DNA from: Patescibacteria group bacterium | GTDB taxonomy: Bacteria; Patescibacteriota; Minisyncoccia; UBA6257; 2-01-FULL-56-20 | Reading direction: 5' to 3' | Assembly (NCBI GenBank): GCA_038077975.1 | Contig: JBBUGM010000027.1 | Span: forward strand, 1-50,951 | DNA: 50,951 bases | Shown here: in pieces, positions 2,003-43,222 of the stretch | How the letters are laid out: each line of letters opens with the position of its first letter | Position numbering within the stretch: the stretch's first letter is position 1 | The notes under the pieces: generated by a model | Seen by the model: the letters and a program-made list of their open reading frames with translations, nothing else | The model's database searches: none | Told to the model about the DNA's origin: nothing | Program-made: the position numbers and the translations under genes

Positions 2003-3748
2003 GTGAACGAAGAATGCCGCTGCTTTCAAGAAGAAAACCTTGTTCCTCTGCCATTGGGCCTTTGGCGGAGCATCAACAGCAATCCTCAAAGAACCGCCAT
2101 TGATTTCTGCGGACGCGCGTTCAGCTATGAAGATCTTGGCCTTTGGGCGGCGACTTTTAAAAAAATATTCGCTGGCCTTGGCGGTTTGGGCACCCCGGGC
2201 GACGAGATTCCGCGCATATCGCTCCTCCTGCCGAACGTGCCACAGTTTATCTTTGCTTATTTTGGCGCGCTCCTGAACCGCCAGATCGTCTCGCCCGTAA
2301 ACTATGTTCCCTTGGCAAGCCAACTCAAGACAGCCAAACCGAAAAATATCAAAATTGATGAGAAACTAATCAAACAATTCGAACAAACGCGTCTGAGCAT
2401 CGTTGTTGTGGCCGAACCGTTCTGGCCGATTCTCGAAAAGGTCGGTTTGGAACTATTCCGCGATTCCGTGATTATTATCACGAGCCCGGCCGATTTTCTT
2501 CCGAAAACGAAAAGTGTGCTCTATCCCCTGAGCGCTCTTTGGAACTACGGATTTGTAAGAATTCCGAAACGAGGGAACGTCGTCCGGCTTCGCGACCTTC
2601 TGCAGAACGACTGGCGACCATCGTTTGGCGTCTTCGAGGAATACGCCGCAAGTCCTGCCGCGCTCGAGGATGTCTCCCACTTGCAATATACGGGCGGCAC
2701 AACCGGCGCTCCGAAGGGCGCGATGTTAACTCATGAAAATTTGGTCTCTAACCTCTGGCGATGCCGCGAATATCTTGGCGAGATCGTTGAAGACGGTGCC
2801 TCCATGCTAGCCGCTTTGCCGCTGTGCCACTCTTACGGATTCACAATGGCCATGACAACGCTCATCGGCCTTAAGGGGAAACTCGTGCTCTTGCCGAAAT
2901 TTTCTCCAAAAGAGGCCTGTAAACTGATCGAGAAACATAAGATCAAGCTTTTTCCCGGATCGGGAAAGATGTTCGAAGCGATCCGGCCGCTGGTCGGCCA
3001 CTACGATCTTTCATCGTTGACATTCTGCCCAACAGGAGCGGAAAAAACGCCAACCGAACTCATTTCTTCGCTCCGCAAACAAGGCGTTCCCGTTTATGAG
3101 GGGTATGGACAATCGGAAACATCTCCCGTGATTTCTTTCTGCAAACCCGGCGCGGATAAAATCGGCAGCGTCGGCAAACCCATACCGGGAACCGAAATCC
3201 GCATTGTTGACGTCGAAAGCGGCGAAGAAAAACCGGCGGGAGAAATGGGCGAAATAATCGTGCGCGGGCCGCAGGTAATGAAGGGCTATTACGGCAACCA
3301 GAAAGAATCGGCGGCAAAAATAAAAAACGGCTGGCTTTATACCGGCGATGTCGGAAAAATTGACGAAGACGGATTTCTTTGGTTTATCGATCGAGAAGAC
3401 AATTCCGGAAAAGTGGCCGGGGAGTGGGTTTACGGAGCCCCCGTCCGCGAGTTTTTGCTTAAATATTGGGACATCAAGAATTGTGTCGTATTCTGCGTAC
3501 TTGACGAAAAAACCGGCCAATCCCCGGCCCACGCGTTTATTCTGCCAGGCGCGTCATTTACGAAAGAAGGTCTTGCCGCGCATCTCCGCGACCTGCCAAA
3601 CCCTTACTGGAGACCCAAAAAGGTGGTCATTTTTGACGAACCGGCGTTCAATCAGTGGTTCGATCCCGTTTTAAACAAGGTGAACTTCAAGGCCGCGAAA
3701 AAGTATTATCTTGAAAATCGCGATACGCTCCGATCGATTTATCCTTAA
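2003..3748 (+). CDS. Adenylate-forming enzyme, long-chain acyl-CoA ligase (FadD-like)
   Basis: YTGGTTGAPKG, YEGYGQSE, RGPQVMKGY and YTGDVG motifs; SD GAGGGG before GTG. Confidence 0.88.
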   Translation: MNEECRCFQEENLVPLPLGLWRSINSNPQRTAIDFCGRAFSYEDLGLWAATFKKIFAGLGGLGTPGDEIPRISLLLPNVPQFIFAYFGALLNRQIVSPVNYVPLASQLKTAKPKNIKIDEKLIKQFEQTRLSIVVVAEPFWPILEKVGLELFRDSVIIITSPADFLPKTKSVLYPLSALWNYGFVRIPKRGNVVRLRDLLQNDWRPSFGVFEEYAASPAALEDVSHLQYTGGTTGAPKGAMLTHENLVSNLWRCREYLGEIVEDGASMLAALPLCHSYGFTMAMTTLIGLKGKLVLLPKFSPKEACKLIEKHKIKLFPGSGKMFEAIRPLVGHYDLSSLTFCPTGAEKTPTELISSLRKQGVPVYEGYGQSETSPVISFCKPGADKIGSVGKPIPGTEIRIVDVESGEEKPAGEMGEIIVRGPQVMKGYYGNQKESAAKIKNGWLYTGDVGKIDEDGFLWFIDREDNSGKVAGEWVYGAPVREFLLKYWDIKNCVVFCVLDEKTGQSPAHAFILPGASFTKEGLAAHLRDLPNPYWRPKKVVIFDEPAFNQWFDPVLNKVNFKAAKKYYLENRDTLRSIYP

Positions 3749-25144: not shown

Positions 25145-25238
25145 GCGCGGATTTATGCGGATTTGCGTCCGCTCACGGCCGCTGATACGTGCGGAAATAT
25201 CAGCATAAATCGGTTAAAATCAGCATTAATCAGCGCAA
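25145..25238. repeat. Periodic palindromic element (GCGGAT/ATCAGC family) before pcrA
   Basis: gcggattt units followed by atcagc units; homologous to 21200-21237. Confidence 0.7.
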
Positions 25239-28564: not shown

Positions 28565-28682
28565 ACAAATTTTCAATTATCAATTCTCAATTTTCAATCA
28601 AACCTCAAGCATTAATGCGCAATTGAAAATTAAACCATTTTGGAACTTTATTGATAATTGCTCATTGAAAATTGATAATTAA
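28565..28682. repeat. 7-nt periodic palindromic element (TCAATT/AATTGA family)
   Basis: Left arm ttttcaa-ttatcaa-ttctcaa-ttttcaa; right arm ttgaaaa/ttgataa units. Confidence 0.8.
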
Positions 28683-28685
28683 GCC

Positions 28686-29573
28686 ATGAGTCGCCTTGGC
28701 CAACATTTTTTAAAAGATAAAGTCGCGCTCAAAAAAATTGTTGATGCGCTGGATTTGCGCTCCGGTGACATCGTTATTGAGATTGGAGCGGGACACGGAG
28801 AGCTCACTAGAAAAATTATCAATTTTCAATTATCAATTTTCAAAAACGATGCGCAAAAAATTAAAATTATTGCAATCGAAAAAGACAATGGTCTCGCAAA
28901 AGAATTTGCGAGAAATTTTCAATGTCCAATTTCCAAGTTTCAAGAAAATGCTGATAAATTACTAAATGAAAATTTCGTGCTCTTTAATGATGATGTTTTG
29001 AAAATTCTAGCGCCCTTGATCGAATTTCTAAATTTGAAAATTGAAAATTGTAAATTGAAAATTTGCGGGAATATTCCCTACTACATCACCGGAAAACTTT
29101 TGCGTATTTTGAGCGAGCTGGAAAATAAGCCGGAGGTTTCCGTTTTCACAATCCAAAAAGAGGTTGCCGAAAGAATGTGCGCCTTGCCGCCGCGTAATAA
29201 CCGCTTGGCCGCAATAACACAGTTCTGGACAGAGCCAAAAATCCTCGAATATCTCGCGCCCGGGGCGTTTAATCCGCCGCCGGAGGTGGAGTCCGCCATC
29301 ATTAGATTAAAAATCAAAGATCAAAATGCAAAATTGATCGACGCGTGGAAATACTACGAAACCGTAAGAATTTTGTTCCAACAGCCGCGCCAAACAATTT
29401 TGAACAACCTCGCGCGGGCGACTAAACAAAAAAGGGCCATCGGCACAAATCAGCCCAATCGGCATAAATCAGCGATTATAGAAAAGCTTTCCGCAATAGA
29501 GATCGATCCCGAAAGCCGGCCACAAAATTTGAGCGTTGGAGAAATAATTCAAATCAGCTCCTTAAACCTTTGA
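28686..29573 (+). CDS. rsmA: 16S rRNA dimethyladenosine transferase with repeat-derived insertions
   Basis: LGQHFL, IEIGAGHGELT, AIEKD, GNIPYYIT, QKEVAERM, FNPPPEVESA, RPQNLS. Confidence 0.95.
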   Translation: MSRLGQHFLKDKVALKKIVDALDLRSGDIVIEIGAGHGELTRKIINFQLSIFKNDAQKIKIIAIEKDNGLAKEFARNFQCPISKFQENADKLLNENFVLFNDDVLKILAPLIEFLNLKIENCKLKICGNIPYYITGKLLRILSELENKPEVSVFTIQKEVAERMCALPPRNNRLAAITQFWTEPKILEYLAPGAFNPPPEVESAIIRLKIKDQNAKLIDAWKYYETVRILFQQPRQTILNNLARATKQKRAIGTNQPNRHKSAIIEKLSAIEIDPESRPQNLSVGEIIQISSLNL

Positions 29574-29764
29574 TCGGTCAATCCGGCATCGCGAATAATT
29601 CCGCGAAGGGTGTAGGGGTTAAGACGAGTATGTCGCGGTATAGTCACCCTGCGTCGTCCATCCGTCATGCCAATGTGTTTTTTCCCGCGACCTTCTGAAA
29701 TCCAGAAGCCGACTTTTTTTAAAGCCCTGACCAACCGATCGGATGAAATATCCGTAAAAAGCAT
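29549..29764 (-). CDS. hicA: HicA-family toxin
   Basis: LVRALKKVGF...GKKH...VTIPRH...TLRGIIRDAGL; TGATG coupling to hicB. Confidence 0.88.
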   Translation of the reverse strand: MLFTDISSDRLVRALKKVGFWISEGRGKKHIGMTDGRRRVTIPRHTRLNPYTLRGIIRDAGLTDQRFKELI

Positions 29765-29970
29765 CAGCCAGCGGCGATTTCCAACTCTCGAACCTTAACA
29801 TTGGTTCCTTCGGTCTCTGCCAAATCCATCCCAATATATGTCTTAATCGCGTCCCCGATGTTCTCTAGTGCCTCTTTTTCGGTTTTCCCTTGGCTGTGAC
29901 ACCCGGGAAAAGCGGGGACGTGGACATCGTAGCCATATTTGCTTTTCCGCAAAATAACAGTGTATTTCAT
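29764..29970 (-). CDS. hicB: Short HicB-family antitoxin
   Basis: VPAFPGCHSQGKTEKEALENIGDAIKTY; no C-terminal DNA-binding domain. Confidence 0.9.
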   Translation of the reverse strand: MKYTVILRKSKYGYDVHVPAFPGCHSQGKTEKEALENIGDAIKTYIGMDLAETEGTNVKVRELEIAAG

Positions 29971-36979: not shown

Positions 36980-37068
36980 TGCAAAAATCAAAATGCAAAA
37001 ACTGATTTCGAATGATAGAATTAATTAAACTTCATTTTGAATTTTGATTTTTTAATTTTGATCTAATT
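36978..37068. repeat. 7-nt periodic palindromic element (CAAAAT/TTTTGA family)
   Basis: atcaaaatgcaaaa is shared with 43143-43156 and with rsmA 29320-29333. Confidence 0.78.
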
Positions 37069-37070
37069 TT

Positions 37071-41931: not shown

Positions 41932-43128
41932 ATGAAGCGCCTATCTTATCTCATAATCATTCTCGCGGTCGTGGCTTTGGTCGTTCTCATCGGCTATTTC
42001 TTGCGCTACAGAGCCGGCGAGCCGGCCACCTCCGGCGAGCCATCTCCGGGAGGACTTCCGGCGATCCCGACCGAGCCGATTTCCCAGCCCGGCGGGGAGG
42101 AGGGGGGCGGAGCCGTTACGCCACCGGCAGAAGTCGTCCAGCCGGGTGAGCAGAAGTTCGGGGTGATAGCGCAGAACCAGGTGTTCGACTTTTTTGTCGA
42201 CGCACAAAATAATACCGTTCTTATCCAGCCCGACGGGCAGGTTGTAAAAGTAGTAAAAGGAGAAGCGTCTGTCTTAAGTTCGTCAGTAATCAACAACTTA
42301 CGGCGGGCGGAGTTCTCTTATGACGGCAAATTCATCCTTGCTTCATTCGGCGGCGCAAGTGGACAAGAACACAGCATCTTTAATATCGATGCAAAATCCT
42401 GGAGCCCGCTTTCAGGGGGGATCTCGTCGCCAACATGGTCGCCGATGAACTACCAAATCACATATTTCCGCGAAAATGCCGGCGTAAAAACGCTTGAAAC
42501 GCTTAATACCGCCGATCCAAAAGCCAAACCGCAGGAGCTCACGCGTTTGAACGCCGAAGACCTGTTGCTCTCTTGGATAAGCCCGAACCAAATGATAATT
42601 GGCGAAAGGGGAAGCGCGCTTGTCGCGGGATCGCTTTGGAGCTTCGATACGCAGAAGAAAACCATGTCGTTATTCATGGATGGCGTACTTGGCCTTAATT
42701 CCGCATGGAGCGGTGAGGCATCAACTGGCCTTGTCTTTAGAACCGATGTCTCTCGCCGCGGAGGCACGCTTTCCTTATATGACGTGGCCGGCAATGCGCT
42801 TGCGAACCTTTCGTTCCTTTCCCTCCCTTCAAAATGCGCGTTTGACGCAGTCCCTGCGAATGGAACCGGAACGGCCGCCTCAAAATTCCTTTACTGCGCG
42901 ATCCCGGCAAATGCTGAAAGTTTCGGGAATTCCATGCTGCCGGATGATTACGAAAAACGCGCGCTCTTTGCTCGCGATGGATTCTTTAGGGTGGACCTTG
43001 CGGAGGGTGGCATTAAAGAACTTCTCACGGGACAGCTTGTTGACGGAAATCGGCTGAAGATCTTCGGAAAGAATCTGTTCTTCATAAACCGGCTTGATGG
43101 AAGATTGTACGCGCTGGCGCTAGAATAA
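41932..43128 (+). CDS. Membrane-anchored beta-propeller-like protein
   Basis: N-terminal TM, Pro/Gly linker, TolB-like FSYDG, WSP and WISP blade motifs. Confidence 0.72.
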   Translation: MKRLSYLIIILAVVALVVLIGYFLRYRAGEPATSGEPSPGGLPAIPTEPISQPGGEEGGGAVTPPAEVVQPGEQKFGVIAQNQVFDFFVDAQNNTVLIQPDGQVVKVVKGEASVLSSSVINNLRRAEFSYDGKFILASFGGASGQEHSIFNIDAKSWSPLSGGISSPTWSPMNYQITYFRENAGVKTLETLNTADPKAKPQELTRLNAEDLLLSWISPNQMIIGERGSALVAGSLWSFDTQKKTMSLFMDGVLGLNSAWSGEASTGLVFRTDVSRRGGTLSLYDVAGNALANLSFLSLPSKCAFDAVPANGTGTAASKFLYCAIPANAESFGNSMLPDDYEKRALFARDGFFRVDLAEGGIKELLTGQLVDGNRLKIFGKNLFFINRLDGRLYALALE

Positions 43129-43222
43129 TGCAAAATGCAAAAATCAAAATGCAAAATGACAATGTAAAAATTTTTAGATTAAAGATTTGTGTTTTTGATC
43201 TTTGATTTTTAAATTTTGATTT
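43128..43222. repeat. 7-nt periodic palindromic element between convergent genes
   Basis: tgcaaaa-tgcaaaa-atcaaaa-tgcaaaa left arm; ttttgat units on the right. Confidence 0.78.

Follow-up and report, generated by a model that had tools for sequence, protein, structure and literature searches.

In-frame short-period repeat arrays in five variable segments of rsmA in a Patescibacteria group bacterium

The rRNA methyltransferase gene rsmA (ksgA) of a tiny groundwater bacterium of the Patescibacteria group carries short periodic repeats inside its coding sequence, and in the present study we ask where they come from. The gene lies on a stretch of 50,951 nucleotides (nt), hereafter the window, which is contig C27 of a genome of 771,694 bp in 33 contigs (88.6% complete). 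Three repeat families are read in frame at five places of rsmA, and the first of them also forms a fold-back upstream of the gene. These five places, named in an earlier note made from the letters of the window, are exactly the five variable segments of 186 orthologous genes, so that the same five enzyme loops have been rewritten repeatedly in many lineages with different 7-nt words. On balance, the data tip towards the view that the repeats are products of a local repeat-making process that operates across this Patescibacteria group, and not copies of one mobile element.

Repeat arrays at the rsmA locus and in its orthologues

The first family is centred on the 18-mer AATTTTCAATTATCAATT, which occurs exactly upstream of the gene (28568-28585) and within it (28821-28838). 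When up to three mismatches are allowed, 12 of its 13 matches in the window fall within 28568-29063, where 0.24 are expected. The arrays of this family (Table 1) alternate in orientation along the locus, being + for U1, - for U2, + for G1 and G2, and - for G3. By Tandem Repeats Finder (TRF), G1 extends over 28814-28843 with a period of 7, and also with a period of 14 at 100% match. U1 is complementary to 28650-28680 (88%) and to 29034-29065 (91%), and G1 is complementary to 29033-29064 within G3 over 32 nt (91%). The G3 array at 29030-29063, which encodes LNLKIENCKLKI, is thus written as the complement of U1, G1 and G2, and it belongs to the inverted-repeat pairs I1, I2 and I4. Directly beside it, the codons of the catalytic G-N-I-P (29067-29078) read GGGAATATTCCC, a perfect 12-nt palindrome abutting the loop-3 array, for which relatives use other synonymous codons. 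G2 is part of a clean loop-2 insert of ∼15 codons that is missing in the orthologous loci L035, L119, L041 and L003.

The second family has the word ATCAAAATGCAAAA in R4, which is found exactly at 29320, 36987 and 43143 (0.09 expected), the latter two sites being arms of intergenic AAAATGC/AAAATCA fold-backs at 36980-37070 and 43127-43220. The unit of the third family, AATCRGCAY, measures 9-10 nt, not 7 nt; the family's word AATCGGCATAAATCAGCG at 29457 has relatives at 29438, 21220, 25146 and 25218, giving five matches against 0.04 expected. A fold-back at 25146-25235, in the spacer upstream of a pcrA-like helicase gene, has arms made of AATCRGCAY units, as in the C-terminal loop of RsmA. All sequence observations of the earlier note were confirmed, namely the 18-mer shared by upstream region and gene, the further heptamer runs with the second one inverted (period 7 by TRF at 28914-28941 and 29030-29063), the sequence common to 29320, 36987 and 43143, the ATCAGC-family unit near 29446-29475 (four units at 29438-29474), and a TTGATA-17-GATAAT element at 28651-28679, 6 nt before the ATG.

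In the AlphaFold2 (AF2) model of RsmA, loops 1-3 each lead from the end of a helix to the strand that follows it in the Rossmann fold, on the face opposite the active site, and G1 encodes the end of helix A plus the subsequent loop. The other two variable segments are the interdomain linker and a loop of the helical domain. Model confidence dips at residues 51-60, 211-220 and 251-260.

Table 1. Features of the rsmA locus, in window coordinates, and variable segments of RsmA, numbered as in the window protein
Feature	Position	Strand	Details
rsmA/ksgA coding sequence	28686-29573	+	295 aa, intact; identified by profiles, motifs, structure model
U1, left arm of upstream fold-back	28566-28598	+	AATTTTC/AATTATC/AATTCTC; TRF period 7 at 28568-28598, 4.4 copies
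U2, right arm of fold-back	28648-28680	+	degenerate array (TTGATAA TTGCTCA TTGAAAA TTGATAA); contains TTGATA, GATAAT
G1 array, loop 1	28813-28846	+	aa 43-54, KIINFQLSIFK; AATTATC/AATTTTC units
Perfect 9-bp hairpin	28892-28913	+	TCTCGCAAA-AGAA-TTTGCGAGA, within LAKEFAR codons, directly 5' of loop-2 array
G2 array, loop 2	28913-28943	+	aa 76-86, NFQCPISKFQ; partly decayed AATTTTC; TRF 28914-28941, period 7, 3.9 copies
G3 array, loop 3 and start of strand 4	29030-29065	+	aa 115-127, LNLKIENCKLKIC; GAAAATT units; TRF 29030-29063, 4.9 copies
R4, interdomain linker	29304-29334	+	aa 207-217; AAAATCA/AAAATGC heptamers
R5, loop of C-terminal domain	29438-29474	+	aa 251-263; four AATCRGCAY units, ∼9-10 nt
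Segment loop 1	residues 41-63		25 arrays (186 genes)
Segment loop 2	residues 67-103		11 arrays (186 genes)
Segment loop 3	residues 105-128		47 arrays (186 genes)
Segment interdomain linker	residues 204-223		19 arrays (186 genes)
Segment C-terminal loop	residues 242-268		9 arrays (186 genes)

For comparison, rsmA loci were collected from relatives and metagenomes, and 186 distinct complete genes were kept. An array was called where 17 or more positions of a 21-nt window agreed with those lying 7 nt downstream. By this measure 72 of the genes carry 111 arrays and 61% have none; at a lag of 8 nt 17 arrays were obtained, and at each of the other lags from 3 to 12 nt, 0 or 1. All 111 arrays lie within the five segments of Table 1, and none was found in the conserved core of the 186 genes. 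The units vary widely between lineages (e.g. AACTACG, CTATAAG, GAATTAA, AAACCCT and AAATCTT). The fewest changes on a tree built without the columns of the five segments come close to the number of carriers, e.g. 23 changes for 25 carriers. This tree of a 200-column protein is weakly resolved, and the argument for recurrence therefore rests on the differing units rather than on tree counts.

The earlier note had proposed that repeats grow into the loops without breaking the frame, with equal-length loops in repeat-free orthologues as the finding that would speak against it. The frame is indeed kept by all three families, and three of the five segments are longer, both in the window protein compared with the array-free median (loop 1, 21 versus 15 residues; loop 2, 35 versus 22; C-terminal loop, 25 versus 14) and in array carriers at large (17 versus 15, 28 versus 22 and 20 versus 14, respectively). 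At the other two sites the lengths are equal or nearly so (loop 3, 20 versus 20 residues; linker, 17 versus 18), and growth does not describe them: there the repeat appears to overwrite a segment of unchanged length. Correspondingly, a discrete insert relative to empty-site orthologues is seen at loop 1, loop 2 and the C-terminal loop, and not at loop 3 or the linker. Loop-3 arrays are tied to their flank: 40 of the 47 end no more than two codons away from K125, which is nearly invariant, and 25 include it. Arrays such as (CTATAAG)n run in register with the YKL codons. A separate observation concerns loop 1 of the L035 rsmA (2501-3442), in which the AATTTTC array is interrupted by a G+C-rich 33-nt piece, GCCTACTCCGCCGAAGCGGCTGCGAAGGCCGGG (AYSAEAAAKAG), so that a second type of insert would be nested within the first.

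Locality, orientation and conservation of the arrays

The period of 7 nt holds throughout the genome, in which 51 segments were counted at lag 7, 23 at lag 14 and 0-5 at other lags, after subtraction of 33 contig-spacer artefacts. Since arrays occur only at lag 7, and weakly at lag 8, chance or low complexity was rejected as their source. The 201 period-7 arrays of the genome use at least 40 canonical units. Among the orthologous loci, a common unit is shared by 20 of 48 array pairs within the same gene, compared with 12% between clusters, and by 12 of 40 pairs of gene and flank, compared with 9%. The AATTWTC unit is almost private to the rsmA locus, as 8 of 11 and 6 of 6 of its triple-unit matches in the genome fall within 28568-29063; other units are found at 13-40 separate places. 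The word 'invaded' in the earlier note, i.e. import from elsewhere, is not borne out by this near-private unit. Moreover, arrays abut or include conserved flanking codons, so that a local origin fits better than import.

With four arrays covering 16.3% of its length, rsmA ranks first of 706 open reading frames (ORFs) in array load, the coding mean being 0.33%. Across the clade, array density is 0.73/kb in rsmA (111 in 152 kb) and 0.10/kb in its flanks (38 in 375 kb), with 0.44/kb in the first 100 nt upstream of the gene.

Inverted copies prevail within the gene. When the loop 1 and loop 2 segments were compared with loop 3 at a match score of at least 14, inverted matches were obtained in 21 of 163 lineages and direct matches in 3. 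The controls gave 0.05 genes per round with shuffled reverse complements and 0.9 with cross-gene pairing, by which a composition artefact was rejected. The complementary units are lineage-specific: AAGATTT/AAATCTT in L059, GAATTAT/ATAATTC in L085 and L113, and AGCTTTT/AAAAGCT in L068.

In comparisons with the four nearest relatives, third positions at identical residues are 43-55% identical outside the segments and 85-95% identical in the arrays. A residue-matched control gave 79 of 89 array codons identical versus 48.1 expected (pooled over four comparisons, which are not independent), and codon bias was thereby rejected as the reason for the conservation. In the GAAAATT array of loop 3, all codons are fixed save the would-be TGA, which is TGT here and TGT, TTG, TAC or TCG in close relatives. 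In L034, the periodicity of the array has decayed and the peptide has decayed likewise.

The perfect hairpin preceding the loop-2 array takes, together with this U-rich array, a terminator-like form in our scan; such sites are no commoner in the genome than in shuffles, and the same form recurs at loop 2 in eight other carriers. All carriers of an AATTTTC-type loop-2 array have a hairpin of 8-9 bp there, in two registers that correspond to two clades. Within each register three positions are altered on both sides of the stem, and the encoded amino acids shift with it (A-R, S-E, S-K, G-E). Decay of the array in L034 and L056 goes along with a hairpin that retains only 7 of its 9 pairs. In the genome as a whole, a perfect hairpin of 8 bp or more lies next to 10.8% of arrays, compared with 0.9% of random places.

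Candidate origins of the arrays

The pattern, position, orientation, locality and conservation of the arrays are observed, and from these we infer a process of slippage and template switching. In this process, which we consider somewhat better than evenly probable, slippage would be seeded from flanking codons, inverted copying would act over a short range, and the outcome would be filtered for an open frame. A 7-nt proto-repeat in K/I/L-rich codons beside a loop would be extended by slippage; for example, AAA TTG AAA ATT (KLKI), when followed by G, is already nearly two heptamer units. Arrays lying within a few hundred bases of each other would then serve as mutual templates, usually for inverted copies, in the manner of quasipalindrome-type template switching, in which inverted repeats are perfected by templating from the other arm (PMC6357072). 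Such inverted copying could yield a private unit for each locus, fold-backs, short perfect hairpins and length-neutral overwriting of loops, and selection would spare only those outcomes that stay in frame, contain no stop codon and lie in tolerant loops. Consistent with such a process, neither MutS (domain V) nor SbcD nor RecJ was detected in the genome (88.6% complete), and for the large subunit of exonuclease VII the only match was broken and sub-threshold.

Several points weigh against this account. The absences of repair genes are drawn from an incomplete genome. The array DNA is better conserved than synonymous sites, for which neutral copying alone is insufficient, and the loop-2 hairpin keeps perfect pairing through double changes; both could reflect selection on nucleic-acid structure. 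Because single steps of 7 or 14 nt break the frame, arrays within the gene could grow only in steps of 21 nt, by block copying or by way of inactive intermediates, of which none was seen. Families 2 and 3 share words of 14-18 nt with distant intergenic fold-backs, so that some import is likely. Finally, the period of 7 is not explained by slippage and template switching, and the K/I/L-rich strands of rsmA account only loosely for its ∼7-fold excess of arrays over the flanks.

The foremost alternative, to which we give a rather low probability, is that the inverted arrays and the hairpin with its U-rich tract are selected structures of RNA or single-stranded DNA that control rsmA. They might act as a 32-bp duplex of loop-1 and loop-3 codons cut by RNase III, which this genome encodes, or as an attenuator early in the coding region that senses the distance between ribosome and polymerase. 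The conservation beyond codon bias, the 21 to 3 preference for inverted over direct matches with lineage-specific units, the double changes in the hairpin and its decay together with the array all agree with this, and the minimum-free-energy fold pairs 28813-28844 with 29033-29064. The leaderless layout would leave no 5' untranslated region for regulation, and rsmA is the most array-rich gene; if the structures were functional, a leaderless gene would be regulated from within its own coding sequence. However, strong RNA structure at the arrays is not supported, as folding energies are only marginally better than those of shuffles, with z = -1.9 in the gene segment and z = -0.53 in the upstream fold-back. 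The inverted pair is present in only ∼13% of lineages, most genes are array-free, and the arrays of the linker and the C-terminal loop have no pairing partner. The two hairpin registers point to repeated origin and not to one inherited structure. Recurrent templated perfecting would also mimic covariation, and since it can mimic both RNA covariation and purifying selection on synonymous sites, caution is due in comparative methods.

A bolder combination, less probable still, is that a templated copying process of short range continually writes and re-perfects locus-private 7-nt inverted arrays and small hairpins in spacers and tolerant core-gene loops of Paceibacteria-type Patescibacteria, perhaps unleashed by loss of the hairpin nuclease and single-strand exonucleases, and that in rsmA the resulting structures would now be cis-regulatory within the coding region of a leaderless mRNA, acting either as a target of RNase III or as an attenuator coupled to translation. 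If true, this version would explain why the repeat DNA is the best conserved of the gene, why the hairpin covaries and why rsmA is the most repeat-rich gene.

A descent of the arrays from small mobile palindromic elements, of the Rickettsia type or miniature inverted-repeat transposable elements, that transposed into genes and survived only where the frame was kept and the loop was tolerant, is doubtful. Rickettsia offers well-known examples of palindromic inserts read in frame (PMC10969869), the exact words of 14-18 nt that families 2 and 3 have in common with intergenic fold-backs elsewhere in the window would suit such an origin, and the inserts at loop 2 and the C-terminal loop are discrete. 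In this genome, four-helix-bundle genes of the intervening-sequence type are likewise enclosed by inverted periodic arrays, so that a parent cassette could exist. Nevertheless, the main unit is private to its locus and units change from lineage to lineage, the lengths of loop 3 and the linker are unchanged, and arrays stand in register with conserved flanking codons. The insertion of a single fold-back element in rsmA was rejected, because the complementary arms flank the invariant catalytic codons and cannot be one insertion. No dispersed consensus element was seen, the sharing with other sites being limited to the words of families 2 and 3, and no terminal inverted repeats or target-site duplications were evident on reading the array junctions, for which no formal search was made.

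Selection on the repeat-encoded peptides (NFQFSIF, LKIENxKLKI) as protein features, e.g. for extra contacts with a reduced ribosome, is improbable. Although orthologues of 48-66% identity carry these peptides in the corresponding loops, and loop 2 is modelled with a predicted local distance difference test score (pLDDT) of 91-93, unrelated peptides occupy the same places in other lineages and most orthologues lack the inserts. Third codon positions are moreover conserved beyond what the peptide needs, and in L034 the peptide decayed where the periodicity of the DNA did. Least of all do we expect the heptamer tracts to be a slipped-strand on/off switch. Heptanucleotide switches are known in other bacteria, and with one unit gained or lost the reading would move out of frame (7 not being a multiple of 3), but the tracts here comprise only 4-5 units with interruptions, no frameshift occurs in any of 194 orthologues, and a second assembly of the locus is identical over 3,888 nt.

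Among known systems, the Rickettsia palindromic elements resemble the rsmA repeats as hairpin-forming repeat DNA read in frame within housekeeping genes, at places compatible with the fold, in a host of small, reduced genome. They are dispersed families of ∼150 bp, each with a consensus and a conserved peptide (PMC10969869), whereas the rsmA pieces are 28-37 nt long, consist of 7-nt (or 9-10-nt) units of which the main one is locus-private, use other units at the same sites in other lineages and leave the length unchanged at two of the five sites. Heptamer repeats have been described for TAACTGA in Beggiatoaceae, Cyanobacteria and Bacteroidetes, as a single unit mostly just upstream of genes (PMC4679880), and for GGGNATC in Xanthomonas and Nostoc (PMC4692102). 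Ours are likewise abundant tandem arrays of few 7-nt units, mostly intergenic, often near start codons and rarely in ORFs. Unlike those, with one unit genome-wide, at least 40 locus-private units are used in one genome here; and where TAACTGA arrays enter ORFs they sit at protein ends, while those of rsmA sit in internal enzyme loops as inverted pairs. Our literature search found no description of heptamer or in-frame repeats in Patescibacteria/Candidate Phyla Radiation.

The closest likeness in mechanism is quasipalindrome template-switch mutagenesis (the Ripley model, with Escherichia coli reporters; PMC6357072, PMC7202029), in which nearby inverted repeats are perfected with little or no change of length. 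The perfect 9-bp hairpin, the inverted arrays within ∼250 nt and the overwritten loops of rsmA match its products, a match drawn from sequences and not from an observed mutation event. This mutagenesis is known as a rare mutational hot-spot mechanism of the laboratory, and we know of no report in which it shapes the loops of orthologous genes across a clade. Repeat DNA within a core gene thus need not be an invading element; under the slippage and template-switch reading, the loops of rsmA would be a natural record of this mutational process in the protein evolution of unculturable organisms.

Palindromic amphipathic repeat coding elements (PARCELs) share with rsmA coding repeats of dyad symmetry at the DNA level, but are tandem 25-residue domains in surface proteins of unknown function that spread horizontally, in contrast to the short loop inserts of a core enzyme. 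rRNA intervening sequences that bear ORFs (PF05635 four-helix-bundle genes) have long stems of inverted flanks, and RNase III is present here; unlike them, the rsmA arms enclose conserved coding sequence and not a cassette, with no sign of excision. PF05635 genes of this genome are themselves flanked by locus-private periodic arrays with units of 7-9 nt (C31:23789-24100, C16:7130-7420 and C32:18205-18348), inverted at C31 and C16, which suggests that the same process, or a parent cassette, acts there too.

The predicted promoter, the gene and its neighbours

The upstream element TTGATA (28651-28656)-17-GATAAT (28674-28679) scores 10 of 12 in a scan for promoters of the sigma-70 type, and both hexamers are parts of U2 repeat units; 6 nt separate the end of GATAAT from the ATG at 28686. 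Across the genome, -10-like hexamers peak 6-9 nt before the ATG (18, 14, 8 and 7 versus a background of ∼2), and a Shine-Dalgarno-like word precedes only 72 of 451 long ORFs; the genome thus appears, from these letters, to carry the mark of leaderless mRNAs. The GATAAT of rsmA stands at the modal leaderless distance of 6 nt, and the U2 arm is 35/38 identical in L033, where the spacer between the fold-back arms has diverged. The U2 arm therefore likely coincides with the predicted leaderless promoter of rsmA.

The further suggestion of the earlier note, that a repeat was co-opted as this promoter, is upheld in part: the modal position and the arm kept in L033 favour it. The sister locus L031 lacks an upstream repeat, and in relatives without the repeat a -10-like box is retained at the same distance. 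On the other side, every array of this unit, including those within the gene, matches the consensus equally well, and does so on either strand. Of the 51 leaderless-type -10 boxes in the genome, a single one falls within an array; arrays were thus rejected as a general source of promoters, and promoter co-option by repeats is rare. It is equally conceivable that the promoter was there first and that the upstream repeat grew from it, because arrays elsewhere run in register with conserved neighbouring sequence.

The rsmA product matches the Pfam family RrnaAD (PF00398; E = 1.2e-39, 136.5 bits, cut-off 24) and TIGR00755 (172.3 bits, cut-off 171), the latter score barely exceeding its cut-off because of the loop inserts. 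The five loops mark insertion-tolerant places in RsmA, and the repeats account for the borderline family score of an otherwise normal gene. In an alignment of 21 sequences G34, G36, G38, E65, D103 and N129-I130-P131-Y132 are invariant, which are the S-adenosylmethionine-binding GxGxG, the acidic residues of motifs II/III and the catalytic N-I-P-Y. The AF2 model (pLDDT 88.2, predicted template modelling score 0.85) has the two-domain fold of solved KsgA structures from Coxiella and E. coli by Foldseek (E = 5e-22, target TM up to 0.85). On the profiles, invariant residues, model and KsgA match, decay of the gene, part of the other alternative raised in the earlier note, was rejected, and rsmA is an intact gene for a predicted working, probably leaderless-transcribed RsmA/KsgA, the dimethyltransferase of A1518 and A1519 in 16S rRNA. 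The factor is one of the less conserved in these bacteria (PMC12641178).

Protein matches point to Paceibacteria-type Patescibacteria (Liptonbacteria, Wolfebacteria and Jorgensenbacteria). No 16S rRNA gene, and hence no helix-45 target sequence, is present in the 88.6%-complete assembly. Upstream of rsmA lies a divergent gene of 408 aa on the opposite strand, across a 150-nt spacer. Directly 3' of rsmA lies a hicA/hicB toxin-antitoxin pair (29549-29970, - strand), of which hicA overlaps the last 25 nt of rsmA, and at the sister locus L031 a small GIY-YIG gene in the same position likewise overlaps the rsmA 3' end, suggesting that this junction takes up small accessory genes.

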